In this document: positions 13,901 to 64,000 of the stretch, piece by piece | Layout of the letters: each line of letters opens with the position of its first letter | Position numbering within the stretch: position 1 is the stretch's first letter | Assembly: GCA_963823665.1 (NCBI GenBank) | Contig: CAWGMQ010000002.1 | Location: 221,753 to 285,752, forward strand | Reading direction: 5' to 3' | Length of the DNA: 64,000 nucleotides | Source of the DNA: an uncultured Planctomycetota bacterium | Lineage (GTDB): Bacteria; Planctomycetota; Planctomycetia; Isosphaerales; Isosphaeraceae | Notes under the pieces: model-generated | Seen by the model: the letters and a program-made list of their open reading frames with translations, nothing else | What the model was told of the DNA's origin: nothing | The model's database searches: none | Program-made: the position numbers and the translations under genes

Positions 13901-14477
13901 GCGTCGTCCAGTTCGGTCAGCACCTTGTTGATTCGCGGGTTCTGGGCGCGCGGCTTGAAGAGATCATCGAGCCCTTGCTGCAAGGTCTGCTGAGCGCGGC
14001 GCAGACCCGCCAGCCCGGCGCCGGCCGCGAACAGCAGCTCCCCCAGTACTCCCTTGCCCGTGCGGATTTCCTCACCGGCTTGCGAGAGCCGTTCGTGATC
14101 GATGCCAAAGAGTGACTCGAAGGTCTGCTGGTTCAAGTCGCCGAGGAATCGTCGCCGCCATTCCTCGGGGATGGTCGTGGAGTCATCAGCAGCACGCAGC
14201 GTGTTGCCTCTTCCGCGGCGACGCAGAATCTCCAGCTCGCCGCCATCGCTGTGCCGAAGCGTCGCGCCCACGCGAAGCTGCTCGTTGGGATGAACGAAGT
14301 TATCGGCAGACAGGTGCGGAAAGCCAAAGAGCAAGTGCGAGATGGCCCGCAGCGCCGAGTCTTTCCCGCCTCGTTGGGGCCGTAGATCAGGTGCAGACCG
14401 TGTTGCCCGGCGGAAAGGTCCAGCACGGCACTGCTGAAGGGCCCGACCGCTTTCAAATTCAGCTGGAGCAGCTTCAT
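10933..14477 (-). CDS. yhaN: YhaN-family SMC/SbcC-like ATPase (AAA_27); 1-nt frameshift at the Walker A motif near 14362
   Basis: N-terminus LNLKAVGPF...LIYGPNEAGK in ORF 14133-14477. Long coiled coil and C-terminal MSDGT..LYLALRLA, PFIVDD, FDDDR and FFTHH in ORF 10933-14487. Confidence 0.9.
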
Positions 14478-14483
14478 GACGGA

Positions 14484-28814: not shown

Positions 28815-29309
28815 TCAGGTTGGATCGGTCACCCAGAGGAGATAAGGACTGAACGGTCCCGCGTTAAGCGATTCGTAAAATACCTGATCAGCGGTGACGA
28901 GCCGGCAGTTCAGTGTTTTGGCCAAAACCAAATAATAGCTGTCGTAGACTGTCGGCCGTGCGGCGCTCATTGCAAGATCAAACGCGGCCTTTAACAACTG
29001 AGCCATCGCGTGAACCGTAAGAGCAACCCCCTCGAGTAGTTCCAGGATAGCGCGCCCCTCGGCTTCACTGATCTCCGGTGTTTTGAGAAGGCGAGCTTTC
29101 TTCCAAATAATATTGCCGAACTCCGGGAAGAACAGTTCTGGTACATGCAAGGTAAAGACTGGGCTCAGGAACCGCTTGGCATCGGCTTCATGAACCTCCG
29201 GTACATACCACTTGACCGCGACCCCAGCGTCAACAACGAAATTCGTCGGATTTACCGACGACCCTTCAGAGAGATCAAGCGCGGCAACCGTCACTGGCGC
29301 CGGACTCAT
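28815..29309 (-). CDS. vapC: Type II toxin, VapC/PIN domain
   Basis: VVDAGVAVKW, E..N..WK, TVYDSYY and LVTAD motifs; ATGA overlap with the antitoxin stop. Confidence 0.9.
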   Translation of the reverse strand: MSPAPVTVAALDLSEGSSVNPTNFVVDAGVAVKWYVPEVHEADAKRFLSPVFTLHVPELFFPEFGNIIWKKARLLKTPEISEAEGRAILELLEGVALTVHAMAQLLKAAFDLAMSAARPTVYDSYYLVLAKTLNCRLVTADQVFYESLNAGPFSPYLLWVTDPT

Positions 29310-32700: not shown

Positions 32701-33768
32701 TCAATCTGCCGGTCGATCCACGGACGAGCGTGGCAAGAGTCTCACAATGGCCTCGGCGATCTGAGGAAGAGGCACGACTTCCTCCGCCGCCCCGATCTCA
32801 ACCGCTGCTTTGGGCATCCCCCAAACGACGCTCGAAGATCGGTCTTGAGCAATCGTTCTCCAACCAAGCCGGCGCAGGTTGAGTAGCCCCTCGGCACCGT
32901 CGCGGAGCATTCCGGTCAAGAGAACGGCAACGCCGGGCCTGGGCCAGTTGCGAGCCGCGCTATTGAAGAAAACATCGACCGACGGGCGATAGGAGGTTTC
33001 TCTCGGCTCAACCGAATAATGCAAGCGGCGATCCTCGCCGATCACCAAGTGGTCGTCGGTCCCCGAAAGCAGGATCTCGCCCACAACGGGCTGATGTTCT
33101 TCGGTTGCCAGCATCACGCGGCGGCCTGCTTGCTCGGAAAGCCACTGGCCGAGACCTGGAGCAAACGCGGCGTCGACATGCTGGACGATGACGATTCCGC
33201 CCGTAAGCGTAGCAGGCAGTCGCGAAAGTATCTCCGCGAGCGCCTGAGGGCCACCAGTCGAGGCTCCCAGGAGCACGAGGGGATCAAGCGCCTTCTCAAC
33301 CAGAGAAGTCCAGGTGATCGAGGACGACTCACGCACCGCCTGAGCTGGCCGTTCAGCCAGCTTCCCCACTGGCTTCCCCAGAAGCTTGCCGATGAGCTCG
33401 ATCTTGTGCAAGAGCACCGCCGCACCGCTGATTTCGCCGCGCGACCCCAGGATGGGTGTATCAATGGCGTCGAGCGCTCCGTAGCCCATGGCTTGGTAGA
33501 CCTTGTTGAGATGTCCGGTGACCGTAGCGGTGACGACCAGAATCGCGCAGGGAGATTCACCCATGATCCTGCGCGTTGCCTCGACGCCGTCTGTTCCAGG
33601 CATGAGCAGATCCATCAAAATCAAGTCGGGCACGTCGGCACGCGCAAGAGCAACCGCCTCGGCACCGTCCTTCGCCATCCAGCTCACTTCATTCGTCCCC
33701 GACGACAGCACAACCCGGCGCAGCGCCTCGCGAGCCAGACCCATATCGTTGGCGATCCCGATTCTCAT
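32701..33768 (-). CDS. cheB: Chemotaxis response regulator-methylesterase CheB (WspF-like)
   Basis: MRIGIAND..DLILMD receiver; GASTGG, VQH, YRPSVD and LLTGMLRDG. Confidence 0.93.
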   Translation of the reverse strand: MRIGIANDMGLAREALRRVVLSSGTNEVSWMAKDGAEAVALARADVPDLILMDLLMPGTDGVEATRRIMGESPCAILVVTATVTGHLNKVYQAMGYGALDAIDTPILGSRGEISGAAVLLHKIELIGKLLGKPVGKLAERPAQAVRESSSITWTSLVEKALDPLVLLGASTGGPQALAEILSRLPATLTGGIVIVQHVDAAFAPGLGQWLSEQAGRRVMLATEEHQPVVGEILLSGTDDHLVIGEDRRLHYSVEPRETSYRPSVDVFFNSAARNWPRPGVAVLLTGMLRDGAEGLLNLRRLGWRTIAQDRSSSVVWGMPKAAVEIGAAEEVVPLPQIAEAIVRLLPRSSVDRPAD

Positions 33769-33868
33769 GCTTGGTTGTTTCGAGCTCTCATGAGGTCCGA
33801 AATGCGCCTCGGCCAATGCAAATGCCAACACAGTCGAGCAATCTCGAAAGGCACAAGCATCTCTCCCC

Positions 33869-34351
33869 TCAGCTCCACGGAGCAGCGGGCTTCTGCTTCC
33901 ACAACCAGATGATCCAATCCACATTCTGGGGCTGACCGTCAAAATCCCTGAGCCGGGTCATGCACTGCCCACGGTGATGTTGGGAGTGCATTGCCACCTG
34001 AACGAGTGCTTCGGAGACCGTGATGACGCACGGTGGATCAGGGAACCACGGAATTCGCACCGTCTGCGAAAGGTGATCCTCGTTCAGGGCTGCGGTGAAT
34101 TCGCGGAGCCCGGCGTGCGTGGTCACTGCCCGGCTCTTGATATCATCAAAACCCGGTGGTGCTCCGGTTGGTGGGCTTCCCGGGGTCTCGCCGCGCAGGA
34201 TCGAGAGAAAGCCATGCTGAACTCCCACGATGTGGCCAACCCGTCGCCGCATCTCTTCCAGGTCACGGCAAGGAGAATCGCCCCACGCCTTGAAAAAAAC
34301 GGCATTTGCCCATTCGGCATGAGCCATCAGATCGCAGAGAAAGCTGGTCAT
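33869..34351 (-). CDS. DinB/YfiT family protein
   Basis: HAEWAN, GHIVG and MHSQHHRGQ metal-binding histidines; GGAGG RBS. Confidence 0.88.
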   Translation of the reverse strand: MTSFLCDLMAHAEWANAVFFKAWGDSPCRDLEEMRRRVGHIVGVQHGFLSILRGETPGSPPTGAPPGFDDIKSRAVTTHAGLREFTAALNEDHLSQTVRIPWFPDPPCVITVSEALVQVAMHSQHHRGQCMTRLRDFDGQPQNVDWIIWLWKQKPAAPWS

Positions 34352-34372
34352 CGGAAAACCTCCGCACGGTGG

Positions 34373-36790
34373 TCATTCTCGGGGGTCACCAATCAAGTCG
34401 GCCACCGTGGTCAAGAATGTCTGGTCATGGAAGCTACTCTTGGTCAGATAGGAATTGGCGCCGGCGTCCAGACCCCGGATACGGTCTTCTTCCCGATCTT
34501 TATACGAGACAATGACCACCGGGATTGCCTTCAGCCGCGAGTCATCCTTGATGTGCCGCACGAGCTGGATACCGTCCATCCTGGGCATATCGACATCACT
34601 CACCACCAGATCATAATGGGCAGTGCGCACAGCATTCCAGCCGTCGACGCCGTCAACCGCGACATCGACCGAATATCCGCGGTTTTCCAGCAACTGCCGT
34701 TCGAGCTCCCGGACCGTGATCGAATCGTCGACGACCAGAACCCGCTTCACCGCACTGGTTCTCCTGGGAGGGGTTCGGGCAGCAAGCTTGCCGAATCTGC
34801 GGCCGGATAGCATATTGTCGATCGAGCGGATCAGGTCTTCGACATCGATGATCAAGACCGGCCAACCATTCTCGAGCACCGACGAGCTATTGATATTTGG
34901 AACCTTGCCGAGCCGGGCATCCAGCGGCGACACCCGCAGGTCGCGCTCGCCCAGGAAACGGTCGACAATCACGCCGAAGTGATGACTGCGATCGCTGGCA
35001 ACCACGACCGGCAACCGCTCGAGCCTGTCATGTTCGTCCTTGGCGGGCAGTTCGAGCACGGCTGACGCTTCGACCAGTCCAATCGGCTGATCGTCGAGCA
35101 TCACGTGCGGCTTGCCCTCAAGCTCCCGCACGTTCTGCCGGTCGAGCATGAAGATGCGGTCGATGCGGCTCAGTGGGAACGCGTACGGCTCGCCGGCAAT
35201 TTCTACCAGCAGCGCACGGATGACCGAGACGGTGATCGGCAACTGAAGTACGAACCGAGCTCCTGTGCCCAGCCGTGTGTTGACTCGGATCAGGCCGCCA
35301 ACCGCTCGCACCATGTTGTGAACGACGTCGAGCCCGACACCCCGGCCGGAAACCTCTGTCACGTTTTCCTTGGTCGAAAAGCCTGGCAGGAACAGAAACT
35401 CGAGCAATTCCGCCTCACTGAGCTGAGCGGCGATCGCAGCCGTGGTCAGCTCTCGCTCGACCACCTTGGCCCGTAACCTCTCCAGGTCGATGCCGCGCCC
35501 ATCATCGCCCAGAATGATCTGAAGCATACCCGCACGATGGCGAGCTTCGAGCTTGATTGCGCCCATCGCCTTCTTCCCGGCCGCCCGGCGCTCCTCCGGT
35601 AGCTCGAGGCCGTGGTCCACCGCGTTGCGAATAAGATGGTTAAGGGGTGATTCAAGACGGTCGAGGATGTCGCTGTCGACACCCGTGTTCTCGCCCACCA
35701 CCTCGAATCGAGCTTGCTTACCGAGCTCTTTGCCCAGGTCGCGAACGAGCCGTGGGAAGCCACGGATCGCATCGGCCAGCGGCCGCATCCGGCTGGCAAG
35801 AACCTCCTGATGCAGGCGGCTCGAAAGATCCTCACTCCGGCGAGCGAATTCCTCGATCGCCTCGACCGTCTCTCCAAGTGTCTGCAAGCACTGCGCAGCC
35901 TGTGCTTTGACCACGGCCAGTCGCTCTCGGTCCGCGGCGCCCAACCGATTCTCTTGATCATTCAGGATGTGGTCCTCGAAGACATGGAGCGACTCTAGCA
36001 ATCCGGTTTCTTTCCCTTTAAGCCGCCACAGCGAGTCCACCAGTGGCGGGAACCGGTGCGATTGCACCAGCGCCTCGCCGGCAAGACCCAGCAGTCGTGT
36101 CAGGCTCTCGGCCGTGACCCGCACCACACGGTCACGACTTCGGTCAGCAGACGAGGCTGGGCCGCTCTGTGCAACCCGGGGTTCCACCTGAGTCTGCTCT
36201 GAGAGCAGGGTGGGTGGCGCTGGCGGCACGACTACAGGGCCGATGATCACCGCGCTCGATTGACCAGCGCTTGCCGCACCAGTATTCGCCTGGCTCTCGT
36301 TGATCGCCGGCGAAGGGAGCGGCGCGAGGATGGGCTCGCGTATTTGCGCGGATGGAGGTGGTGGCCCGGAACGCAGCGGTAATCGACCTTCCCTGGCAGC
36401 GTGTAACTCGGTCACGAGCGAATCGATTTCATCGGCACGCTCGGTTTGCCATGCCTCGATTTCCACTTCACCGAGCTGTGCCACCCGAGCAAGCATGTCC
36501 ACGCCTCGAAGGAGGAGATCAACATGCTCGGAGCGAAGCGTGAGTTTTCCTTTCTGCGCGTCGACAAAACAGTCTTCCATCGCATGAGCGATCCGAACAA
36601 TCGCATCGAGCCCGACGATCCGGGCGGCACCCTTGAGGGAATGGGCCGCTCGCATGAGCGGCTCGATCACTTCGGGTGTCGCGGAAGTTTCCTCGACTGA
36701 AACCAGACCTGCCGAAAGTGTGGCGGTGTGGCTCTCGGCCTCCATCCGAAAAAGCTCGATCAACGAGAAACCGCTGAGATCGCCGCTCAC
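34373..36790 (-). CDS. cheA: Hybrid CheA (Hpt-HATPase-CheW-REC), WspE-like
   Basis: MRAAHSLKGAA, HLIRNAVDHG, DDGRG, PGFST, SGRGVGLD, a CheW domain and C-terminal VLVVDDS...DVDMP. GTG at 36790 overlaps the upstream stop. Confidence 0.94.
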   Translation of the reverse strand: MSGDLSGFSLIELFRMEAESHTATLSAGLVSVEETSATPEVIEPLMRAAHSLKGAARIVGLDAIVRIAHAMEDCFVDAQKGKLTLRSEHVDLLLRGVDMLARVAQLGEVEIEAWQTERADEIDSLVTELHAAREGRLPLRSGPPPPSAQIREPILAPLPSPAINESQANTGAASAGQSSAVIIGPVVVPPAPPTLLSEQTQVEPRVAQSGPASSADRSRDRVVRVTAESLTRLLGLAGEALVQSHRFPPLVDSLWRLKGKETGLLESLHVFEDHILNDQENRLGAADRERLAVVKAQAAQCLQTLGETVEAIEEFARRSEDLSSRLHQEVLASRMRPLADAIRGFPRLVRDLGKELGKQARFEVVGENTGVDSDILDRLESPLNHLIRNAVDHGLELPEERRAAGKKAMGAIKLEARHRAGMLQIILGDDGRGIDLERLRAKVVERELTTAAIAAQLSEAELLEFLFLPGFSTKENVTEVSGRGVGLDVVHNMVRAVGGLIRVNTRLGTGARFVLQLPITVSVIRALLVEIAGEPYAFPLSRIDRIFMLDRQNVRELEGKPHVMLDDQPIGLVEASAVLELPAKDEHDRLERLPVVVASDRSHHFGVIVDRFLGERDLRVSPLDARLGKVPNINSSSVLENGWPVLIIDVEDLIRSIDNMLSGRRFGKLAARTPPRRTSAVKRVLVVDDSITVRELERQLLENRGYSVDVAVDGVDGWNAVRTAHYDLVVSDVDMPRMDGIQLVRHIKDDSRLKAIPVVIVSYKDREEDRIRGLDAGANSYLTKSSFHDQTFLTTVADLIGDPRE

Positions 36791-37530
36791 GGCCGGAGAC
36801 TCCGAATCACTCCAAAGACTCGTTGTTCGTCGAGCAGGCCGACACTCCGCTCGTTCCAGGACAGAACAGCCTGGCTGAAACCGACCGCCGGATTGATCAA
36901 AGTCGAAGGAACATTGCGCCACTGGCTGCGCGGTATCCGCCGAACGCCCACGACCTCGTCTGCGGCAAATACCCAGGTCTCCGCTCGCTCTGTATCCCGA
37001 AGCACAACTAGCCGGGAAGACGGTCCCGGGGCAGCCGTCGCTCCCAGCACCCCGTGCAGCGATACACAAAGTTGAACCTGGCCTTGCAGACTGACAATGC
37101 CAGCAAAGACCGCGTTCGAGCGGTGAGGAATGCGATGGACGGGCCTGAGTAAAGTCACTTCAACGATCGTTTGAGTGCGGAACGCCAGCCATTCTCCACC
37201 GAGACGGAAGACCAGAACACTGACTGCATCACTTCGCGACAGAAGGCCGTCCCCCTTCGCCTCAGATCGATCGCCGTGCGCGCCGAAGGCCGCTGGCTCG
37301 GCCAGCCAGCGCGACCAATCCGCGAGATAACCCTCTGGCGCACGGCGGTCAAAAAAGCTGCGCGCCGCTCCAGCAAAGACCGGACAATTACGACAATGAA
37401 CGTGCGTGCTTAGCTCCGGGCAACTCCGGTCACCTGATATCCCGATCGTATTCCAGCAATCGCCCAGGCCGGGTCCGCGGCCCTGGAGGCCGATTCGGGA
37501 GGATTCGTCGACAGGCGCATCGCTGTCCAT
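36787..37530 (-). CDS. cheW: CheW, WspD-like with Cys-rich N-terminus
   Basis: DCWNTIGISGDRSCPEL..HVHCRNCPVF, VFRLGGEW and HRIPHR. Confidence 0.92.
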   Translation of the reverse strand: MDSDAPVDESSRIGLQGRGPGLGDCWNTIGISGDRSCPELSTHVHCRNCPVFAGAARSFFDRRAPEGYLADWSRWLAEPAAFGAHGDRSEAKGDGLLSRSDAVSVLVFRLGGEWLAFRTQTIVEVTLLRPVHRIPHRSNAVFAGIVSLQGQVQLCVSLHGVLGATAAPGPSSRLVVLRDTERAETWVFAADEVVGVRRIPRSQWRNVPSTLINPAVGFSQAVLSWNERSVGLLDEQRVFGVIRSLRP

Positions 37531-37531
37531 T

Positions 37532-38845
37532 TCAATTCACTCGCTTCCAGGCCAAACTCGCCGTTCGTTCAGCGCGGCGGCGGAACCCAGCCGCCGTGCG
37601 CTCATCACCGCGGCGCTCCGCCAGCAGGGCCAGAGCCAGCAGTGCCTCATCATGGTTGGGGTCGAGATAGACCGCCTTCCGGAAACAATCCTCCGCACGC
37701 TCGCGGTCGCCGCCGGCCTGGCAGATCATTCCCATCAAACAATAGGCGGTCGCGGTGAGACCCGCTTCCTGAAGGTGCTGCTGACAAAGGGAGATCGCAT
37801 CACTAAAACGACCGTGATTGGCCAGCTCAGATGCTTGCCTCAGTAAAAGTGACGGTTCGTCCACTTGCCGAACCAGGTTATCGGAACTTGTCAAGGTTGT
37901 GGACTGGGCGCCACCTCCTGTCGTTTCAGGAGGGCTTGCTGCTTGGATTGCATGAACAGGATTCGCCACGACCGAGATCGGGATGGACGCTGACGATTGA
38001 AGCGGATCCGGGCCCGCAGGCCCAGGAGGTTTGTTGCCTGTCGTCCAGCGGTAGGTGAAGCAACCGGGATCATCTGTTGGTGCAAATCCCCTTCCCGCTC
38101 CGGTCGACTCCAGCCGGTCGGCGTGGCCGATCAGCAGAACTCCGTCGGGGGCAAGAATTCGATTCACTAATGCCAGCAATGCTTCCCGAGCGGACGGAAT
38201 GAGGTAGATCAGGAGATTCCGGCAAAGGACCAAGTCGTACGATTGTACGTTTTTGAGGAGTTGGGGATCCAGGATGCTTCCCTGTGTGAAGTAGATACTT
38301 GCCCGTAGCGTGGGATCGATTTCATAGCCTTCGGGATGGTCTCGAAAGCAGCGAGACCGATACGGGAGAACCGGCCCGCGGAACGCATTCTTTGAGTAGA
38401 CTCCGCGGTGCGCAATTGCCAGTCGGCGCTCGCTCGCATCAATCGCGTCAATCCGGTATCTGGAGGCTGGAAACCCTTCTTCCGCGAGCACAATTGCGAT
38501 GGAGTACGGTTCCTCACCCGCCGCGCAAGGCATGCTAAGGATTCGCAGCGGAAGCTGCGCCTTTGCGCTCTCTAGCCGCTGCCGAACATAGCCTCGTAGC
38601 CACTCAAAAGGGCGCTCGTCGCGGAAGAACCAGCTCTCGGCGACGACAACCTCTTCGACCAGCTCCTGAAGCTCCTTCAGCGAGCTTTTGACCTCACGCT
38701 CGTATGCAGCCAGGTCGGTCACTTCCCGTTGTCGCATTCGCTCTCGGACCGCGCGCAGGATGAGCTGGGGGCCGACCGAGCTCGGGTCCAGCCCGATCTT
38801 GCTCTTTAGAAGCTCCTCGATTGCGGGCAGCGCACCAGCCATCAT
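37532..38845 (-). CDS. cheR: CheR methyltransferase with TPR, WspC-like
   Basis: ESWFFRD, SMPCAAGEEPYS and CRNLLIY; C-terminal FRKAVYLDPNH.EAL TPR. Start uncertain (38842-38854). Confidence 0.93.
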   Translation of the reverse strand: MMAGALPAIEELLKSKIGLDPSSVGPQLILRAVRERMRQREVTDLAAYEREVKSSLKELQELVEEVVVAESWFFRDERPFEWLRGYVRQRLESAKAQLPLRILSMPCAAGEEPYSIAIVLAEEGFPASRYRIDAIDASERRLAIAHRGVYSKNAFRGPVLPYRSRCFRDHPEGYEIDPTLRASIYFTQGSILDPQLLKNVQSYDLVLCRNLLIYLIPSAREALLALVNRILAPDGVLLIGHADRLESTGAGRGFAPTDDPGCFTYRWTTGNKPPGPAGPDPLQSSASIPISVVANPVHAIQAASPPETTGGGAQSTTLTSSDNLVRQVDEPSLLLRQASELANHGRFSDAISLCQQHLQEAGLTATAYCLMGMICQAGGDRERAEDCFRKAVYLDPNHDEALLALALLAERRGDERTAAGFRRRAERTASLAWKRVN

Positions 38846-38863
38846 GACTCCCATCCCGGATTT

Positions 38864-39460
38864 TCAATCGTGCGTTTTCGAATCCTCAAGTGCAGGCAGC
38901 CCAGCCTTTGCTTTTGAGGGATCAGGACTCCAGTCGGTTCCCTGGTCCAGGATACCGTCCTTCAAGAAGCTTTCCCGAATCCGATCCACCGCGATCAACT
39001 GGATGATTCCCGCGTCGGTCTGAACAATAGCGTCGAGGAAAGGTGCCTGGGAAAGCTGGATCGGGGCTGGGACAACCTGGTCCGACCGCACTTCGACCAG
39101 GTCGCTGACTTCTTCGCCGATCAATCCCAGAAGACGCGGTTCACTCGCATGGTCCCCTGTCGAAGGTCCGATGTTTTCATCCGATGAGCCGCCCGCTCGG
39201 TCGATCCCTCGATTTTGATCACCAGGCGAGTCGTTGACCAGGATGATTCGCGTACTGAGGCAATCGCGGCATGAGGCTCCGCTCAAGAGCAGCCCGAGAT
39301 CGATGACCGGGATCACCTTGCCGCGATAGTTGAGCAGCCCGCTCAGAAAAGAAGGCGCATGCGGGATGGCGCGGAGCTCGACCCTGGGCACCAGCTCGAT
39401 GACCCGCACGATGTCAATCGCATACCGATTTGCGCCGGCCTTCAGAATCAGGAGCAGCAT
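38864..39460 (-). CDS. cheW: CheW, WspB-like
   Basis: RYAI...IELVP.V.L..IPHAP...GLLNYRG.VIPVIDL and STRIILV. Confidence 0.9.
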   Translation of the reverse strand: MLLLILKAGANRYAIDIVRVIELVPRVELRAIPHAPSFLSGLLNYRGKVIPVIDLGLLLSGASCRDCLSTRIILVNDSPGDQNRGIDRAGGSSDENIGPSTGDHASEPRLLGLIGEEVSDLVEVRSDQVVPAPIQLSQAPFLDAIVQTDAGIIQLIAVDRIRESFLKDGILDQGTDWSPDPSKAKAGLPALEDSKTHD

Positions 39461-39470
39461 TGTTCATCGA

Positions 39471-41568
39471 TCAAGACGTTGTAGAGGATACAGGAGGATG
39501 GGGGCCCAGAAGCGCGACGGGGGCAAGTTCAATCGTGCCCAGTGTGAAGCGAGATACCTCATCTTTCAGGCCACCAACGGCTTCTCGCAGGCTTTCGGTC
39601 GCCTTGTTGAATTCACGAAGCGCAGTTGACGTTTGATTGGCGGCCTCGCTCAGCCGGGTCATCGCTTCCCGGATCTGCTCAGCCCCCTGCGACTGGACGC
39701 GCATCCCTTCGGTGACCTGGTCGAACTGCCGATGCAAGCCCTGAGCACCGGCGATGATCTGACCCAGTTGGCCCCCAATCTGGCCGACCTCGCCGACGAC
39801 CTTGCGAACCTGTTCGCTGAACTTATCCATCTCCATGACGCCGGCCGAGACGCTGTACTGCATTTCCTTCACCATTCTCTCGATGTCGAGCGTGGCCACG
39901 GCCGTCATGTCGGCGAGCCGGCGGATTTCGCGGGCTACAACTAGGAAGCCAAGGCCGTACTCGCCGGCTTTCTCGGCTTCGATCGCCGCGTTGATGGACA
40001 GCAGGTTGGTCTGGTCGGCCACCTTGGTGATTGTGGTCACGACCATGTTGATGTTGGCAGCGCGCTCGCTGATGACGGAAAGCTTGGAGCTGATCGAGCC
40101 GGTCGACTCCGCAAGCTGCCTCATGGTCAGGTCCATACTGGCCAGGCTCTGCTGGCCCGTTGAAGCCATGCGGGCGGTCTGGTTGGCGACCTGATTAACG
40201 TCGTTCATCGTCTTGAGCAGCTCATGGCTGGTCGCCGAGATCTCGTTGACGGCAGCCGCGGCCTGGTTGGTCGAAGCGCTGTAGTCATAGACAGCCTGTT
40301 CCTGCTGCCGGGAAGTCGCAGCAATCTCGGTCGCCGTCGAAAGCAGAGTGATGCTCGAGCGCTGGATCTTACCAATCAACGAGCGAAGGTCATGGATCAT
40401 CTTGCGGATGGCCTGGAGCAACGTTCCGACCTCGCCGGGGGCTTTGGCCTCGCACGAGACACTCAAGTCACCAGAGGCAACGCGCTCCGAGATAAAAGCA
40501 GCATCACGAATCGGCCTGGTGATCGTGCGCGCTAGCCAGATCGCACCGGCTGTCACGACGAGGAACGTCGTGCCGAGCAGTACTCCCACAACGAATATTT
40601 GCCGGTAGATCAAGTTGAACGCTTCTCTTTCATCCTGCTTGACCACCATTCCCCAGCGGTATGACGGAAGATAGGACCACGCCGCAACGACCAAGTTGCC
40701 GTGGTAGTCAATCGCTGGGCCATATCCGCGTTGCCCCTGGACAGCCTCTTGCATCGCCGTCCCGTGGGTATCGCCTATCTTACCCCGTTGCTTGAGTGCT
40801 GTCTCTGCACTGTACCGCGGCGGCGCGACATAGACGAACGCGTCCTTGCCGCGGCGCATGGCCACCATGGCCTCGCCGGTCTCGCCCAACCCACTATAGT
40901 CCTTGATGACACGAAAGACCTGATCATTACTGAGTTCGAGGGCCATGAACCCGACGACCCTCCCTTCGGCATGGAACAGGGGACACGCAATGAATGCTGC
41001 CGGCTCGCTTCGCCCGGGGTACATCTCGTAGTCCGAGACCTCTGTTTGCAAGAGCGTGCGCACCCGATCAAAAACTTCGGCCAGCTCACTATTCTTGAGC
41101 GGACCGGAGAGGAGATTCGATCCCAGCTCCAGGTCTGGCTTGAGCTGGAAGAGCAGCAATCCCTCGGCATCGAAGATAAAGGCATTCGAGTAGCCAAACG
41201 AGTCGGCAAAATTTGCGACATATGGACGGAACTTCCGGGTCAACTCGGTGTAGACGGGTGAATCGACAGGTTCCTTCCGTCGCACCTCGGCCATCTTGGG
41301 CACGGAATCGGCAATATGGGTGTACCGGCTTACCATATTCAGGTCGGCCCGACGCTCGCGAATAAAGGTTCTCGAGCTGTGTCGCCTTGGCATCGGCGAT
41401 TGCAAGAAGCCCTTGCCGTACTGTCCTCCTCAGCGATCGGTTGGCGCTGTATGAGATGATGCCGGTGAGCACGGCGCAGGGGATCAGCGAGATGATCAAG
41501 AACCAGACCAGCAACTGGGTGGTGATGGTAACGCGTGCCAGTGCTGCCACAGCTTGTCGCAAAGTCAT
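39471..41568 (-). CDS. Methyl-accepting chemotaxis protein (TM1, Cache-like sensor, TM2, HAMP, MA); 1-nt frameshift near 41370
   Basis: TM1 is in ORF 41089-41568. The periplasmic region has PAAFIA.P, LGETGE and DYHG..V.AAW..WGMVVKQD. Signalling domain ADQTNLLSINAAIEAEKAGEYGLGFLVVAREIRRLA. Confidence 0.92.
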
Positions 41569-58188: not shown

Positions 58189-58986
58189 ATGACCATTCTC
58201 GATAAAATCGTGGGCTCGAAGCGTGAAGAGGTGGCCGTAGCCCGGAAAGTGCAACCGCTCGAAGTGCTCGAGCAGCGTGCTCTGGCGGCACCAGCGCCTC
58301 GCAACTTTCGAGGAGCACTAGCCCGTTCCGGTGCGATCCATCTCATCGCCGAGATCAAGAAAGCGAGCCCCTCAGCCAACGTTATCCGGGCTGATTTTGT
58401 GCCAACCGACATCGCGCGTACTTACGAGAAGCATGGGGCTTCATGTCTGAGCGTGTTGACCGACGCGCCCTATTTCCAGGGGCACCTGACGCATCTGACG
58501 CAGGTTCGAGCCGTCGCTCAGATTCCGGTATTACGCAAAGACTTCGTGATCGATGAATATCAGGTCGTCGAAGCACGCGCAGCCGGAGCCGACGCCATTC
58601 TTCTGATCGCAGAAATTCTCGACGACCGACAGCTTGCCCAGCTTCTGGGACAGGCCAAACACTGGAAAATGGCCGCCCTGGTCGAGTTTCACGACGCAGT
58701 CCATCTGGACCGGGTGCTTGCCTCGGGTGCTGATTTGATCGGGATCAATAACCGCGATCTCCATAGCTTCCACACCGATCTTGAACACACCTTGCGGCTT
58801 CGCGACCGGATTCCTGCCGGTGTTGTGCTCGTCAGCGAAAGCGGTATCCACGCAAGAGCGGACGTTGAACGACTCGAAGCTGCTGGAATCAGAGCGATGC
58901 TGGTCGGCGAATCGCTGATGCGAGCTCCTGATATTGGTCTCGCAGTCGATCACTTGCTGGGCCGATTTCCGGCGAGCGCACGGTAA
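58189..58986 (+). CDS. trpC: Indole-3-glycerol phosphate synthase
   Basis: IAEIKKASPS, SVLTD..YFQG, LRKDF, GADAILLI, GINNRDL, SESGI and LVGE. Confidence 0.97.
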   Translation: MTILDKIVGSKREEVAVARKVQPLEVLEQRALAAPAPRNFRGALARSGAIHLIAEIKKASPSANVIRADFVPTDIARTYEKHGASCLSVLTDAPYFQGHLTHLTQVRAVAQIPVLRKDFVIDEYQVVEARAAGADAILLIAEILDDRQLAQLLGQAKHWKMAALVEFHDAVHLDRVLASGADLIGINNRDLHSFHTDLEHTLRLRDRIPAGVVLVSESGIHARADVERLEAAGIRAMLVGESLMRAPDIGLAVDHLLGRFPASAR

Positions 58987-59251
58987 GCCTCTTTCTCGCC
59001 TTGTTCACCAGCATCAGGTTGCGCACGTAGACGAAGAGACCCATTGTCTGACCGGTGATGATCACCGGGTCACGGCGAAAAACTGCATACGACAGGAGCG
59101 CGAGCCCACCAAGAAGACTGAGCCACCAGAACGCAACAGGGACGATCGACTCGCGCTTTCGTTCGGAGGCCAGCCATTGCACCAGAAACCGCGCGGTGAA
59201 GAACGCCTGACCCAGAAATCCCACCGTTAACCAGACGATCAGGTTCGACAC
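58889..59251 (-). CDS. Lipid-A-disaccharide synthase N-terminal (LAB_N) domain membrane protein
   Basis: GFLGQAFF.ARFLVQW.ASE....S.VP.AFWW.SL.GG...Y...R.DPV.I.GQ..G..VY.RNL. Confidence 0.9.
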   Translation of the reverse strand: MSNLIVWLTVGFLGQAFFTARFLVQWLASERKRESIVPVAFWWLSLLGGLALLSYAVFRRDPVIITGQTMGLFVYVRNLMLVNKARKRLTVRSPEIGPASDRLRDQYQELASAIRRPASL

Positions 59252-59254
59252 AGC

Positions 59255-60193
59255 TCAGCCCTCGTCGTGTCTGCGGTTATCGGCCAGGACCGTGTTTTCT
59301 GCATGCGCACGAACAACTGCGGTTCCCCATCGCCGCCCCGAGATGATTTGATAGCGCACCGGCCGTCGCATGAGCCACAAAACCCCGAGCAGGTCAATCA
59401 ACACAGATAGTGAACGATTCCAGAGATTGTAGTGTGTGCGACCGCTTGTGCGAGGCCGGTGGTTAACCGGTATCTGGATCAGCTTGCAACCCTGGCGCAA
59501 CAACAAGGGACCAATGAAGCGGTGCACTCCGCGGAATAGCGGCAGCCGCAGAGCGGCCACACGGGAAAAGATCCGAACCGAGCATCCCGTATCCCGAATC
59601 GATTGTCCGAGCACCACGTTTCGGACCCAGTTTGCCCCGATGCTGATCAGGCGTTTGGATCGAACATCGTGCCGGATTATCCGCCAACCGAGCGCAGCAT
59701 CGTGGCCGGGCAGGGCATTCCACAGACGAATGAGATCCGCCGGGTCGTTCTGCAGGTCAGCATCCAGCGTGGCAATCCAATCCCCTCGGGCAGCAAGAAT
59801 GCCTGCTGCGGTTGCGGCCGACTGGCCCGCCGTCGCGGCCAGAGTCAGCCAGCATAGCTCAGGATAGGAGCCACTCAGTTGCAGCAGAATTTGCTCGGTT
59901 TCGTCGGTTGAACCGTCATCAACGAGCACGATCTCGAATTCTCCCAATCCAGAAGCAGCGCATTGACACACAGGCCGCAGAGCTCGGGCAATCTCCTCGA
60001 CGAGCTGCGGAAGGCTGGGAGCCTCGTTCTTCGCCGCCACCACAACGGACAAAAACGACCCCTCGAGTCGAGCGGCTTTCAGTTCTGTAAGTCGATCTTC
60101 CCATGCAGCGTGCGCAGCGTCGCCGCGCCGAATTCGGTGCCAAGACCCGAGCGGCTGGGCGTGCTGGGGTGGATCGTATCGCCGGGTGGACAT
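59255..60193 (-). CDS. Glycosyltransferase family 2 (polyprenol-phosphate, ArnC/DPM-like)
   Basis: LSVVV.AKNE, VDDGSTD, GQSAA, TLDADLQNDP, DTGC, HRF and VNHRPR. Confidence 0.92.
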   Translation of the reverse strand: MSTRRYDPPQHAQPLGSWHRIRRGDAAHAAWEDRLTELKAARLEGSFLSVVVAAKNEAPSLPQLVEEIARALRPVCQCAASGLGEFEIVLVDDGSTDETEQILLQLSGSYPELCWLTLAATAGQSAATAAGILAARGDWIATLDADLQNDPADLIRLWNALPGHDAALGWRIIRHDVRSKRLISIGANWVRNVVLGQSIRDTGCSVRIFSRVAALRLPLFRGVHRFIGPLLLRQGCKLIQIPVNHRPRTSGRTHYNLWNRSLSVLIDLLGVLWLMRRPVRYQIISGRRWGTAVVRAHAENTVLADNRRHDEG

Positions 60194-60473
60194 AGGGTCT
60201 CCTGGCTCCGTCCGGACCGCTGGATCTCACGAACGATCTGACCGATCAATCAAAAGCAAGAAATGAGACGCACATTTTGCCCGGATCCGCAGCCCCGTCC
60301 ATCCCAAAACCCAGTTACTAAAGACGGTAGACCCGGCTGCCTGTCGAGAACTGTAACCGCGGGAAAACGATCCGTTAAAACCCGCTGGACGAGTTCCAGC
60401 ATCTTTGCTAGCCTGCCCAACCTCAACTCCGGTTTACTTCCTCAAGACCGCTCTGGACAAGGATGTCCCTGGC

Positions 60474-62036
60474 ATGCGTGTGACTGCAAACAAGGATGTA
60501 CCCGCCACGCTCGTTTTTCCGGATCGAGACCTCGGTTCGCGCGTTGTTGCGATGGATCCGACTCGGCTCAGTCCGAGCACGTTCAGCCGATCGATTTATG
60601 GTGACCCCGTTGCCGAGATAGACGACCTCTTGCAGAGCATCCGGGACCATGGAATTCTCGTTCCACTCGTCATCGCGCGCAGAACGGATGCTGAAGCCTG
60701 GCAGGTTATCTCCGGACACCGGCGTTTGGCCTGCGCCCTTGCTCTGAACCTCAGAACTGTTCCATGCGAGATTCGCATCTTTTCGGGTGAGCCGTCACGT
60801 CACCTCGCGGTCTTGGAATATAACCGTCAGCGACAAAAGAACTTCAGTCAAATGATGCGCGAAGCTGATGCGCTCGAGGAGATATGGACAATCCGGGCAA
60901 AATCACGTCGGCTAGCGAATTTGCGAAGACGTCAATTTGAACAGCCGGATAGTCCAACGCTCGCCGATGGTCGTAATTCCGACGATCGGTCGGTTTCGGA
61001 TGAGTCGCATCCCTCCGGCCACAATCAGCCGGTTTCGGATGAGTGGCATGCCTTTGGCCACGATCGGAGCATTGGAGAGTCAACGGACGAAGGGCGCACG
61101 GATCTCCGAGTAGCTCGCAGGATCGGGCTTGGCGGCAAGGACATCTATCGCCAGGCCCGCACGGTGTGGAAGTCAGCCCGGTCAGGTGATATTCGGGCTC
61201 AGAGTGGTGTCACCCAGCTCGATGCGGGCACGAAGACGATACACGCAGCCTACAAGGACCTGCGCCGGCGTGGCCGATTCAGCGCTGATTTTCGGCCGAC
61301 TCCATACGACATCTGGTCGTTCCGGCATGATCGGGCTTTCGGTGTTCCCCATGCGGGTTCGATTCCAGCCGCGATCGTTGCGCATGCCCTCTATTACTAC
61401 ACCCAACCTGGTGCGCTCGTCGTCGATCCGTTCGCCGGTGGTGGTACAACACTTGACGTTTGCCAATCGATGGGACGTCGTTGTCTGGCATATGACATCG
61501 AGCCCGTTCGGCCGGAAATCACCGCACATGACATACGCCATGGGTTTCCCGGCGAAGCGGCCCGCTGCGAGCTGATCTTCTGCGATCCTCCGTACCACAC
61601 CATGCTGGCTAGCCGATACTCGGCTGACGGGATCGCCGCTGCGCCACTATCAGACTGGATCCAGTTCCTCGACGAGCTAGCCCGGAACGCCTTTGCAACG
61701 CTTACCCCCGGCGGATACCTCGCATTGCTGCTCGGAGCACAAACCGAGAAGGATCTTCCGGCTGGATTCGGCTATCTCGATCACGCGTTTTTAGGCTACT
61801 CCGCAGCCCTTCGAGCAGGCTTTCAGCCAGAGCGACGAATCAGTTGCCCGATGCCCGGAGCGTATACCCCTCAGCAGGTGCGCCAAGCCCGCCGAGACGG
61901 ACGCTTACTTGGGCAGGTGCGTGACCTTATCGTTGCGAGAAAACCAACCCAGACCCGGGAATTCGATCTGTCGTTATTCTGTATGTGCAAAAACGGATTG
62001 CTTGCACTTGGGCAAACGGGGACAAGGTCATCATGA
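60474..62036 (+). CDS. ParB/Srx-like N-terminal domain fused to an amino-methyltransferase (N6A/N4C-type)
   Basis: SIRDHGILVPLVI...VISGHRRL; VVDPFAGGGTT (motif I) followed by IFCDPPY (motif IV). Start uncertain (60474 or 60552). Confidence 0.85.
   Translation: MRVTANKDVPATLVFPDRDLGSRVVAMDPTRLSPSTFSRSIYGDPVAEIDDLLQSIRDHGILVPLVIARRTDAEAWQVISGHRRLACALALNLRTVPCEIRIFSGEPSRHLAVLEYNRQRQKNFSQMMREADALEEIWTIRAKSRRLANLRRRQFEQPDSPTLADGRNSDDRSVSDESHPSGHNQPVSDEWHAFGHDRSIGESTDEGRTDLRVARRIGLGGKDIYRQARTVWKSARSGDIRAQSGVTQLDAGTKTIHAAYKDLRRRGRFSADFRPTPYDIWSFRHDRAFGVPHAGSIPAAIVAHALYYYTQPGALVVDPFAGGGTTLDVCQSMGRRCLAYDIEPVRPEITAHDIRHGFPGEAARCELIFCDPPYHTMLASRYSADGIAAAPLSDWIQFLDELARNAFATLTPGGYLALLLGAQTEKDLPAGFGYLDHAFLGYSAALRAGFQPERRISCPMPGAYTPQQVRQARRDGRLLGQVRDLIVARKPTQTREFDLSLFCMCKNGLLALGQTGTRSS
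60981..61067 (+). repeat. 39-bp imperfect tandem duplication in the ParB-MTase linker
   Basis: gacgatcggtcggtttcggatgagtcgcatccctccggc / cacaatcagccggtttcggatgagtggcatgcctttggc / cacgatcgg. Confidence 0.8.
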
Positions 62037-62129
62037 GATCATGCACCGCTGGATGGATTCAGGACCGTTCAACAATAAGGCCGGACGGACGGCAGACCGC
62101 AGGCAACAGCGTCTCGATTACGTCGTCTT

Positions 62130-63164
62130 TTAAGGCTCGCCACACGCTAGCTCATAGACTTTGACTCGCACGAATGGATTGGAGAGCGTCGGGTTGCGCT
62201 TGACGATGGGCAGAGGAAGTGCTTCAAGAGCCAGTTTTAGTAAGCGGCTAAGCTCGTCGGGATCAAGTCGATCAAGGACATAGTTGATTGCCGCTTGTTC
62301 ATCGGCTTGTTTGCGTGATTCCGTCGCCCGTTCCTCTTTAATCTCCAGGCTTTGAATTCGATTCTCCAGCTCGCGGCGCCGGATTTCGAGCCGGCTTGCC
62401 ACCTGCGGTAGCAACTCATATCCATCTTCGATACCGGCTCTGATGTATCCAGGACCGTTCTGAAGTTTGCCCTGGCTCTCGAGATAGAGCGCGTTTAACA
62501 ATACTTTGGCAACCGCTTCCGGGTCCTTTTGCGCGGTGAGCCGCGTGGCAAGGTTTTCAGGAATTCCCTGGTTCGTGAGGAGTTCCTGCAAATCAACAGC
62601 AACTTGCAGGCGCCCTTCAGCCGTTAGACGAAAAGGCGTTCCCGGAATCGGGATCGATGTTGTGTCCTGTTTCGATGCTTCTTCTTGTTTGGGCCTAGCT
62701 GTATGGCCAGTAAGGCCGAGGGCCTTGGCCGGAGCTGGGTCAGATTCTGGACCACCTCGCCAGCTTCCATCTAAAGAATCTAGACCACTTATAGGGCCAT
62801 CCTCTAAAGAAAATAGACCGGTTGGCGGGAGTTCTTTGGCGACTTTAGGGTTTCGATTTCGGGACTGGGAAGGCCGGCTGGGTGCTTGGCGGATGATGCG
62901 GTAGGCCGTGGAGCGGCCCTTGGACTTGTTGGTCGCGAGGATGCCCAGTTGGGTAAGTTGCGCGATAGCCGTGATCACGGTCTGGCGGCTCAGACCGGCC
63001 TGGGTAGCGATGGTGCGAATGCTGGGGTAGGCCCAGTCGGTTCCGAAGTCGGAGTAGAGGCCGATCACGAGATAGACCTTGATCGCCGAGCCTCCCAGGG
63101 TTTTGAAAGCTTCGGACCGAAGAAGGTCGTGCTCGACGCGGAAGAAATACGAACTGGAGGTCAT
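62130..63164 (-). CDS. Winged-helix (HTH_36-like) protein, probable replication initiator
   Basis: AIKVYL...WAYPSIRTIA...GLSRQTV..AI..L...G...Y, a low-complexity linker, and a C-terminal helical domain with KLQNGPGYIRAGIEDGY. Confidence 0.7.
   Translation of the reverse strand: MTSSSYFFRVEHDLLRSEAFKTLGGSAIKVYLVIGLYSDFGTDWAYPSIRTIATQAGLSRQTVITAIAQLTQLGILATNKSKGRSTAYRIIRQAPSRPSQSRNRNPKVAKELPPTGLFSLEDGPISGLDSLDGSWRGGPESDPAPAKALGLTGHTARPKQEEASKQDTTSIPIPGTPFRLTAEGRLQVAVDLQELLTNQGIPENLATRLTAQKDPEAVAKVLLNALYLESQGKLQNGPGYIRAGIEDGYELLPQVASRLEIRRRELENRIQSLEIKEERATESRKQADEQAAINYVLDRLDPDELSRLLKLALEALPLPIVKRNPTLSNPFVRVKVYELACGEP
62737..62819. repeat. Three 33-bp-spaced imperfect 17-bp repeats inside the wHTH gene (iteron-like)
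   Basis: GGGTCAGATTCTGGACC (62737), TCTAAAGAATCTAGACC (62770) and TCTAAAGAAAATAGACC (62803). Confidence 0.65.
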
Positions 63165-63246
63165 GGCAGTCCGTTACGTGGAGAGTGATCGGGAGGCGAA
63201 TTCCAGGTTTTCGTTTTGACCGCCGAACGCAAATCGCCGCTCTTGT

Positions 63247-63555
63247 TCATGCTGCGGGAGGGTCGGACACGTAGTAGGTTTTGACTTTGCCTCGCTGGCG
63301 GGTTGTGGAAACCACGAGACCGAGGTTTTCGAGCCGGGACAAGCTCTCGATGACGGTAGGGCACGAGAGCAAGGTGCGCTGCATGAGCAGTCTCAAGCTG
63401 ATCGTGACGCTACGGTCGGGAACACCACCGCAGGCCTCGATGATGGCCAGGTAGACTTTGATTGCGTCACCGGGGATCCGGGACAGGTATCCGCGGTCGA
63501 ACAGAACGGTTTTTACCCAGTCGTCCTGAGTGGGTTCGGGCCTGGCGACTGGCAT
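63247..63555 (-). CDS. Stand-alone winged-helix protein, paralogous to the N-domain of the downstream gene
   Basis: AIKVYLAI...TISLR.L...T.LSCPTVIESL..LE.LGLV...GKVKTYYV. Start uncertain; the ORF is open to 63756. Confidence 0.75.
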   Translation of the reverse strand: MPVARPEPTQDDWVKTVLFDRGYLSRIPGDAIKVYLAIIEACGGVPDRSVTISLRLLMQRTLLSCPTVIESLSRLENLGLVVSTTRQRGKVKTYYVSDPPAA

Positions 63556-63805
63556 ATTCGGGCGACCTATTTCAAGGGATTCACCAGCCTCGCAGTCGAG
63601 CTCGAGCCGTTTCGGCGTGCGGCAGAATGCCGACTGTTTCGCGAAGGTGTTTTGCTTGTGGGTGGCTCCTGGCCAACGCTTCGCCTCCTGGCGGTGTAGC
63701 TCACGATAGGATAGCTCAAACGACACCACGACATTATCGACGAGACCGAATCTCAACTCCAGAGCCGAGTGGTATGTGAAATCCGAGAAAATCTTGAGAG
63801 GGGTG

Positions 63806-63833
63806 TTGACCTCGGGATTTTTTGAGTTAGTAT
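63806..63833 (+). promoter_or_regulatory. Sigma70-like promoter, divergent from the wHTH genes
   Basis: TTGACC, 16 bp, TAGTAT in an AT-rich tract. Confidence 0.6.
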
Positions 63834-63839
63834 TGCAAT

Positions 63840-64000
63840 TGCCTCGCTAATAACCCAGCGCAAACGACGGCCGGCGTAACTTGCCGCAAGGTAAGGTTGC
63901 ACCGGCCGATGGTGTCGGTGGAAGAAGAGCGACGCAGAACCGCCTCCTACTGGCTGATCCAGCCATTCGTGCGAATCAATCTGAATGAAGCGGTTTTCGG
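63840..64000 (+). ncRNA. Structured RNA candidate (ncRNA or 5' leader), family not identified
   Basis: Long hairpin at 63868-63908 with a GCAA tetraloop and G-U pairs; further stems at 63938-63995; no ORF called here. Confidence 0.45.

Follow-up and report, generated by a model that had tools for sequence, protein, structure and literature searches.

The stretch of DNA analysed here (the window) covers 64,000 nucleotides from the genome of an uncultured planctomycete of the family Isosphaeraceae (GCA_963823665.1), and this report concerns its last part, positions 60474-64000. This part holds three genes and one promoter region. The first gene encodes a fusion of a ParB N-terminal domain with an amino-DNA-methyltransferase. 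It converges on a gene for a winged helix-turn-helix (wHTH) protein of initiator type, wHTH1, and a second and smaller wHTH gene, wHTH2, follows. Next to wHTH2 is a divergent promoter with a structured leader. All of these elements had been named in an earlier reading of the letters alone (the sequence-only reading), and all are present in the sequence. We refer to the three genes together as the unit. The unit is a core, single-copy chromosomal feature of the Isosphaeraceae, and it is vertically inherited. The features of the locus are as follows.

60549-62036, plus strand: ParB_N and amino-DNA-methyltransferase fusion, 495 amino acids (aa) from the ATG at 60549 (Pfam, PDB profile search, motif alignment)
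62130-63164, minus strand: wHTH1, 344 aa, with an HTH_36 domain (Pfam, PHROGs, alignment of 21 orthologs, AlphaFold models)
63247-63555, minus strand: wHTH2, a stand-alone winged helix of 102 aa (BLASTP, PHROG, ortholog alignment)
63556-63805, no strand: divergent intergenic region from the wHTH2 start to the ribosomal RNA (rRNA) operon promoter, which should hold the promoter of wHTH2 and wHTH1 (unmapped)
63806-63833, plus strand: rRNA-operon (rrn) promoter, sigma-70-like, with -35 TTGACC, a 16-nt spacer and -10 TAGTAT, facing away from wHTH2
63840-64000, plus strand: rRNA-operon 5' leader, cut by the contig end, with a stem-loop domain at 63840-63936 and a core hairpin at about 63867-63910

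The longest open reading frame (ORF) of the fusion gene runs from a TTG start at 60405 to 62036 on the plus strand. Because the orthologs are about 490-510 aa long, the ATG at 60549 is the probable start. The product matches PF02195 (ParB_N, E 8.9e-10) and PF01555 (N6_N4_Mtase, E 8.9e-16) in Pfam. In a PDB profile search its N-terminal domain matches the CTP-binding domains of Noc and Spo0J (E 7e-10 to 1e-8), its C-terminal part matches the C-terminal halves of beta-class DNA methyltransferases such as M.RsrI (E 1e-7), and the surroundings of motif I resemble those of the beta-class enzymes M.RsrI, DpnA and CcrM. Three motifs are invariant in 12 of 12 orthologs, namely ParB box II SGHRRLAC with its arginine pair, the S-adenosylmethionine motif I DPxAGGGT, and motif IV DPPY. 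Motif I (DPFAGGGT here) lies about 50 residues ahead of the catalytic DPPY. Thus, the motif order of the fusion enzyme is permuted relative to the beta-class enzymes of PF01555, in which DPPY comes before FxGxG. The PF01555 alignment itself covers only profile positions 134-215 of 221, the C-terminal third.

Like the Spo0J/ParB and Noc proteins of ParABS systems, the fusion has an N-terminal Noc/Spo0J-type fold with the box II arginine motif. Unlike them, it shows no parS-binding HTH and no C-terminal dimerisation domain in a Pfam scan, and it has neither a ParA neighbour nor a nearby parS. It also resembles fusions of a ParB-type CTPase with an N6_N4 methyltransferase, which likewise join a ParB_N domain carrying the box II arginine pair to an amino-methyltransferase with motif I and DPPY. 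The gene described here differs from these in being a core chromosomal gene of a bacterial family that is always convergent with a wHTH pair.

wHTH1 carries the HTH_36 domain (PF13730, E 2.2e-13) and has in addition a weak match to DnaD_N (E 0.012). Its best PHROG matches are to O-like replication initiation proteins, a DnaD-like helicase loader and a replication initiation protein, all at E of about 1e-9. According to the AlphaFold model and the alignment of 21 orthologs, the protein consists of a winged helix at about residues 10-92, a disordered and poorly conserved linker at 95-166, and a conserved C-terminal domain (C-domain) at 167-344. The C-domain is predicted with confidence to contain a small sheet, a helical bundle and a helix of 47 residues, and it reaches a pLDDT of 81.5 when modelled separately. 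In the assemblies G008, G003 and G012 (contigs G008:C28, G003:C14 and G012:C41), which are 60-61% complete, the wHTH1 frame is broken by 1-3 TGA or TAG stops, for which sequencing errors are a more probable cause than pseudogenes or recoding.

The mechanical ORF of wHTH2 spans 63247-63756 on the minus strand. Its orthologs align from MPVARP onward, and because conservation begins there we place the start at the ATG at 63555. wHTH2 is paralogous to the N-domain of wHTH1, to which it is 32% identical over 68 aa (BLASTP, E 1e-5), and its best PHROG match is again an O-like replication initiation protein (E 6e-9). Both wHTH claims of the sequence-only reading are therefore borne out, i.e., a fusion gene that converges on an initiator-like wHTH gene, by the Pfam and PHROG matches given above, and a second wHTH paralog. 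wHTH1 shares its N-terminal PF13730 winged helix and its PHROG initiator-family matches with the HTH_36 initiators of phages and plasmids (lambda O-like, DnaD-like and RepC/RepA_N proteins). It differs from them in being chromosomal, single-copy and vertically inherited, and in having no adjacent iterons, helicase or loader genes. In addition, its C-domain matches no described family or solved fold, and its own wHTH domain has a stand-alone paralog with which the protein is paired.

The promoter at 63806-63833 is the only promoter-like site found by a consensus scan of 60000-64000. It aligns in nine of nine genera, in which the columns TTGA and TAnnAT are invariant. The intergenic region at 63556-63805 is alignable only among the closest genera. 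Downstream of the promoter, the 161-nt leader region folds at -66.7 kcal/mol (z = -4.28; none of 200 shuffles folds as well), and its consensus structure has four compensatory base pairs among four genera. A boxA-like CTCTTTGACAAT lies 107-246 nt downstream of the promoter in eight relatives, and CTTTGACAAT is present in eight of eight. In a genome of the same genus (G001), CTCTTTGACAAT lies 170 nt past the -10 element, which puts its expected position in the window's genome about 4 nt beyond 64000. Bacterial rrn leaders with antitermination signals carry a boxB-like hairpin and then boxA, as in E. coli rrn. The leader described here resembles the E. coli type in its strong conserved promoter and its hairpin domain, followed in the relatives by CTCTTTGACAAT and 16S; it differs in that the window contains no more of it than the promoter and hairpin part, that its sequence is lineage-specific and that antitermination is putative. 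Given the conserved promoter, the boxA in relatives, the rRNA operons downstream of it and the missing 16S gene, the divergent promoter and structured leader noticed in the sequence-only reading are real, and the structured RNA is the 5' leader of an rRNA operon.

The window is the final 64 kb of contig C2 (285,752 bases), so that its end is the contig end. The assembly of this genome (G000) comprises 16.46 Mb in 12 contigs, and no 16S rRNA gene is found in the whole of it. In G001, a complete 16S-23S-5S operon lies beyond wHTH2 and is transcribed away from it. Such an operon is found past wHTH2 in eight of ten relatives' loci; of the other two, one locus ends there and one has no rRNA gene. 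A second contig of the window's genome, C5, ends at 1967747, which is 216 nt past the stretch matching the 5S flank of G001. Judged by the gene order of G001, C5 and C2 abut one missing rRNA operon from its two sides. The contig end at 64000 is thus an assembly artefact, caused by an rRNA operon that the assembler could not place. The sequence-only reading had proposed to look beyond 64000 for parA, an integrase and att sites; judging from the relatives' loci, it is the rRNA operon that lies there instead. A sequence of about 30 nt just past the 5S gene (G001 L023:3238-3273) recurs in about 40 places on contigs C3-C12 of G000. The copies are 89-100% identical, most of them 97-100%, and resemble a small dispersed repeat or a shared terminator.

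The 16.46-Mb assembly has a single copy each of wHTH1 and of the fusion gene. Of 24 Isosphaeraceae genomes, 21 have wHTH1, and the three genomes without it are 76, 92 and 81% complete. No wHTH1 was found in 16 genomes from other families of the class or, at E <= 1e-8, in 300 further Planctomycetota genomes. A genome collection yielded 80 species loci, titled mostly as Isosphaeraceae (Singulisphaera, Tundrisphaera, Aquisphaera, Tautonia, Paludisphaera and many metagenome-assembled genomes); a few carry other titles, which are unchecked (one metagenome-assembled genome titled Candidatus Kuenenia stuttgartiensis and two titled Planctomycetaceae). In all 80, wHTH2 lies upstream of wHTH1 on the same strand and the fusion gene lies convergent downstream. 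The sequence-only reading had suggested checking whether the three genes are single-copy and syntenic; for this family they are, with single copy established for wHTH1 and the fusion gene in the window's genome. Three further genes travel with the unit.

58189-58986, plus strand: trpC (Pfam)
58889-59251, minus strand: LAB_N membrane protein (Pfam)
59255-60193, minus strand: GT2 glycosyltransferase (Pfam)

As had been read from the letters, trpC and GT2 are ordinary neighbours that adjoin the unit. The order trpC, LAB_N, GT2, ParB-methyltransferase, wHTH1, wHTH2 is collinear in most of ten genera, and three of the ten loci are without part of the trpC/LAB_N/GT2 side. Identity to the relative G022 is 67.5% for wHTH1, 75.5% for wHTH2, 68.8% for trpC and 60.5% for GT2. 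Since the values for the unit are near that of trpC, the unit is conserved at housekeeping level. As mechanical ORFs, the 3' ends of trpC and of the LAB_N gene overlap by 98 nt (58889-58986), and a similar overlap is seen between the matched stretches in G001. In most genomes checked, one of the two sides of the unit adjoins an rRNA operon. This is the methyltransferase side instead of the wHTH2 side in G342 and G345, two lineages of metagenome-assembled genomes, where the operon still points away from the unit; judged by the nearest 16S gene, an operon divergent from the fusion gene has apparently taken the place of the GT2/LAB_N/trpC side there (L192, L195). In G021, the convergent 3' ends of wHTH1 and of the fusion gene are separated by an enlarged gap, which holds an Rfam match to the Acido-Lenti-1 RNA (L025:11183-11229; 41.2 bits against a gathering score of 37). 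No Acido-Lenti-1 RNA was found in the five other stretches scanned with Rfam, which cover the window end and nine other relatives' loci.

The rest of the window is typical of a planctomycete chromosome, with a sulfatase, DUF1501/PSCyt proteins, a chemotaxis cluster and kinases. An SbcCD-like pair (AAA_27 plus a metallophosphoesterase) lies at 10933-15782, a PIN-domain gene at 28815-29309, and the chemotaxis cluster, with cheB, cheA, cheR, cheW and MCP genes, at 32701-41405.

The gene types of the unit are typical of mobile elements and the contig ends at the unit, and on these grounds one could take it for an origin or partition module that belongs to a plasmid or secondary replicon, or for the edge of an integrated phage or island. 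The sequence-only reading had offered two options of this kind, a secondary-replicon origin and the border of an integrated element. Neither survives, and we regard such an explanation as having almost no probability. The unit is single-copy, it lies inside multi-megabase chromosomes of the relatives (7-10.8 Mb), its linkage is family-wide, and its flanks are ordinary chromosomal genes that are collinear across most genera tested. The GC content across it, 0.54-0.60, is not deviant. No integrase, phage structural, transfer or parA gene is present among the 40 predicted window proteins scanned, in agreement with what had been noticed from the letters, and the contig end is accounted for by the unassembled rRNA operon.

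Though the unit is not mobile now, it likely descends from a replication-type module of a mobile element that has since been domesticated. A profile search of 1.84 billion representatives found distant full-length relatives of wHTH1 with the same two domains. Among them, one matches Phage_rep_O (P0336) and one the RepC N-domain (RP-C; P0305), and one cluster member comes from a Planctomycetota metagenome-assembled genome. For the fusion enzyme, there is a full-length relative (31% identity over 93%) in a podovirus record, where it lies beside the DNA polymerase genes. A bioRxiv preprint describes fusions of ParB-CTPase and N6_N4 methyltransferase domains as enriched in phages and prophages (10.1101/2025.10.10.680097). 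The third proposal of the sequence-only reading, a domesticated phage-type initiator accompanied by a methyltransferase, is thus the best-supported account of where the unit would have come from, and the initiator activity that it implied remains putative.

What the unit does is a separate matter. We suggest, at roughly even chances, that it is a chromosomal module for DNA binding and methylation, which has initiator ancestry and may be tied to a pole of replication. Its proteins would bind and methylate chromosomal DNA and would not run a separate replicon. wHTH1, possibly together with wHTH2, would bind specific DNA via its initiator-type HTH_36 domain, and the conserved C-domain with its long helix may assemble or recruit partners. 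The fusion protein would be an active amino-methyltransferase for DNA, and its ParB domain, if gated by nucleotide, could deliver the methyltransferase to DNA or retain it there.

Several observations weigh against this proposal. The winged-helix fold of wHTH1 matches the regulators CRP, MarR and RbkR (Z 9-11), which rank highest in the fold search, at least as well as it matches RepA_N initiators (Z 8.5). The C-domain has no match among solved folds, with nothing at E <= 0.001 in Foldseek against the PDB and a best Z of 4.7 in the wide VIA-align search, and residues 165-344 of 15 orthologs match no Pfam or PHROG family of known function, the matches being weak only. Relatives of wHTH1 are absent from 50,697 phage records and from IMG/VR as scanned by two peptide patterns only, and among 72,556 plasmids there is one match, which covers the wHTH part only. 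Because wHTH1 is nearly absent from these collections, the mobile ancestry rests on similarity at the level of families. Furthermore, since trpC, LAB_N and GT2 are equally collinear, the linkage of the unit may be plain descent. Finally, the evidence that ties the unit to replication polarity, given below, is mixed.

Some of these observations fit a different explanation, in which the wHTH proteins are ordinary transcription regulators, acting on themselves or on the divergent rrn operon, and the ParB-methyltransferase is an unrelated orphan, all of them being kept together near rrn by descent. The distance from the wHTH2 start to the rrn -35 element is 171-330 nt in eight of nine genera (1013 nt in the remaining one), and a divergent regulator beside its operon is a classic layout. 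A PDB profile search with the wHTH matches only the GntR-type regulator YvoA (E 0.003). The top rows of Foldseek for wHTH1 are in turn the RepA_N initiators 4pql (E 3.6e-3) and 4pt7 (E 8.5e-3). The fold searches match only the winged helix of wHTH1, and within that fold they do not tell regulators from RepA_N initiators. In an Atlas feature search the C-domain falls with unnamed clusters at 0.92 and with an L_lactis_RepB_C cluster at 0.85, which we take as a lead only. The best family matches of both wHTH proteins, however, are replication initiators. Relatives carry up to eight rrn copies yet only one unit, and in G342 and G345 the operon is on the other side. Regulation would also fail to explain why the fusion gene is linked in convergent orientation in 80 of 80 loci and why the unit lies opposite dnaA. 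We consider ordinary regulation a serious but rather unlikely explanation. The sequence-only reading had held that its idea would fall if structure searches pointed to ordinary regulators and the genes were unlinked in relatives. In fact the genes are tightly linked, which favours that idea, and the fold searches are neutral.

The case for a link between the proposed DNA-binding and methylation module and replication begins with its position. In seven of eight long assemblies, the unit lies 43-49% of the chromosome away from dnaA, the range over all eight being 31-49%: 48.2% in S. acidiphila, 49.3% in Singulisphaera sp. Ch08, 45.2% in T. lichenicola P12, 43.5% in Singulisphaera sp. PoT, 30.9% in Tundrisphaera sp. 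TA3, 47.1% in G342, 42.9% in G345 (one 7.6-Mb contig assumed to be circular) and about 44.8% in G346, which is incomplete. Since these assemblies are related, the placement at the far pole is one pattern and not eight independent observations. The distance of a gene from the origin also tends to be maintained in evolution. The genus of the window differs, in that dnaA of G001 is 612 kb from the unit on the same contig; in the window's genome, dnaA is on another contig than the unit.

The orientation of the rRNA genes gives a second view, as 16S genes are normally co-directional with replication. The 16S genes of G337, G338, G339 and G342 are all directed away from the dnaA-bearing arc, and those of G341, G345 and G346 are all directed away from the unit; those of G340 fit neither model. 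Of the 38 genes, 28 fit an origin on the dnaA side and 20 one on the unit side. The rrn adjacent to the unit always points away from it. Two closed Isosphaeraceae genomes have a 16S gene off the main chromosome (G341 C2:70308-71818 and G340 C3:111446-112953), which suggests rRNA operons on plasmids or chromids.

A place opposite dnaA is also what one would expect of a terminus-region function, in which the winged-helix pair would arrest forks or organise the chromosome in the manner of RTP. RTP of Bacillus is a small winged-helix terminator protein whose gene lies near its Ter sites. The interval of converging 16S genes ends at the rrn adjacent to the unit in G339 and G342 but stays clear of the unit in G337 and G338. 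No window protein has a Pfam match to the RTP or Tus family, and the skew change at the unit, described next, is of the sign expected for an origin. A terminus function is very improbable in our view.

Over 400 kb of G022, cumulative GC skew is lowest exactly where rrn borders on wHTH2, within one 10-kb bin of the unit. The skew is negative for 160 kb on the rrn side and positive for about 2 Mb on the other, turning minus near 2.3-2.35 Mb. The minus-to-plus change persists after correction for gene strand (-0.028 to +0.024 at the unit) and is seen at third codon positions too. On the wHTH side, the sign agrees with G022 in contig C2 of the window's genome over all 285 kb (27 of 28 bins), in G001 over about 570 kb and in G008 over 50 kb. 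On the rrn side of the window's genome the expected sign holds for about 20 kb only and is followed by about 100 kb of the opposite sign, and the profile of G014 is flat. In the 2-Mb arm of G022, rRNA orientation conflicts with the skew, and forks from the unit would meet two further 16S genes head-on. The GC-skew check proposed from the letters thus gives a divided answer, with an origin-type change in G022, one-sided agreement in three other genomes, a reversal in one of these and no signal in G014. The skew change could mark the breakpoint of a rearrangement at an rrn copy, or it could be a local effect of rrn, the operon itself adding a strong local skew of -0.08 to -0.12. Gene-strand bias is weak and mixed, as judged from script gene calls that are crude ORF picks based on GC3. 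The window's genome also holds two sets of ORFs with weak Bac_DnaA matches of identical score, one of 340 aa (contigs C3, C5, C7 and C10) and one of 325 aa (C4, C5, C6, C8 and C10), in 5 and 6 copies. We presume that these are probably IstB ATPases of IS21 type. If so identified, they would point to a large and active mobilome, which could explain the patchy GC skew.

These skew data bear most directly on the possibility that the unit marks an active chromosomal origin, either a second one opposite the dnaA-linked one or the main one in some lineages. We hold this to be distinctly unlikely. The same low estimate applies to the roles that it would assign, with wHTH1 as a lambda-O/DnaD-like initiator, wHTH2 as its partner or antagonist, and methylation as the control. 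In its favour are the skew change in G022 and the one-sided agreement elsewhere, the orientation of the adjoining rrn and of all 16S genes in G341, G345 and G346, the distance from dnaA in seven of eight assemblies, and the fact that all three gene types are of origin-associated kinds. But the 16S genes favour the dnaA side in four of eight assemblies and by their overall count, the sign reverses within 20 kb of the unit in the window's genome, dnaA of G001 is nearby, and no origin signals were found in the regions scanned.

With regard to these signals, the window has no cluster of DnaA-box-like sites (TTATCCACA-like). It contains four sites with at most one mismatch against 5.3 expected; none is in 56-64 kb, in the three genes or in 63556-63805, and the nearest match is at 55930. 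No cluster is present in ten relatives' loci, which have 0-2 scattered sites each. The DnaA-box and parS consensus sequences used are those of other bacteria and may not be this family's own. Iterons or multi-copy direct repeats were found neither in 62000-64000 nor in the same-genus locus, although degenerate sites could escape such a search and part of the intergenic DNA lies past the contig end. There is no parS within the 2.76 Mb of sequence scanned; parS-like sites of the window's genome lie elsewhere, beside a ParB-like ORF on contig C4 and, in one case, on C8, 30 kb from dnaA. Seven evenly spaced DnaA-box-like sites near dnaA of G022 proved to be an artefact of a 114-bp tandem repeat of 7.8 copies (L064:4390-5274), which lies 4 kb from dnaA within an ORF of 898 aa and whose unit is TPR-like by eye. 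This repeat is a trap for origin finders. Full-text searches of the literature found no paper on replication origins of Isosphaeraceae. The passages available of PMC5352709 mention a plasmid 'replication initiator protein A' and, for figures, GC-skew rings, and contain no statement on an origin.

The boldest form of this idea is that the Isosphaeraceae chromosomes (7-16 Mb) have a second origin that is independent of DnaA boxes and opposite the dnaA-linked one, fired by wHTH1 with wHTH2 and gated by the ParB-methyltransferase, with the dominant pole depending on the lineage. We consider it improbable. Archaeal extra origins sit beside captured winged-helix initiator genes, for example oriC3 and WhiP of Sulfolobus. 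If the boldest form were true, the unit would be alike, as an initiator-like wHTH gene of mobile ancestry by a polarity switch and far from the canonical initiator. It differs from the archaeal case in that its firing is putative. To our knowledge, no natural multi-origin bacterial chromosome of such a type is known, though the literature searches were not aimed at one.

We return to the chromosomal DNA-binding and methylation module as our preferred reading and give lesser weight to its tie with replication. The place of the unit opposite dnaA, at a sign change of GC skew, may reflect a role in replication polarity. Such a role could be that of an auxiliary or alternative initiation site, or the control of the neighbouring rrn relative to replication.

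Initiator-type wHTH genes and ParB-methyltransferase fusions are usually read as marks of phages, plasmids or islands, and here they are core genes of a family, conserved at housekeeping level. Because gene kinds of mobile type are core chromosomal genes in this case, annotation pipelines and island finders would mislabel the locus. Cultured strains with closed genomes exist (Singulisphaera acidiphila and Tundrisphaera) and would be able to settle whether the unit is an origin or a regulator. If it were a regulator pair for the rRNA operon, it would represent a lineage-specific control of ribosome synthesis. If it were an origin, the rule that a bacterial chromosome has one origin would be overturned, and a second origin would make this the first natural chromosome of a bacterium with several origins, in parallel to the origins that archaea have captured. 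The unit, opposite dnaA at a switch of strand composition, provides a testable handle on where replication starts, how it is oriented and where it ends in the rearranged and very large chromosomes of these budding planctomycetes, a poorly known matter.

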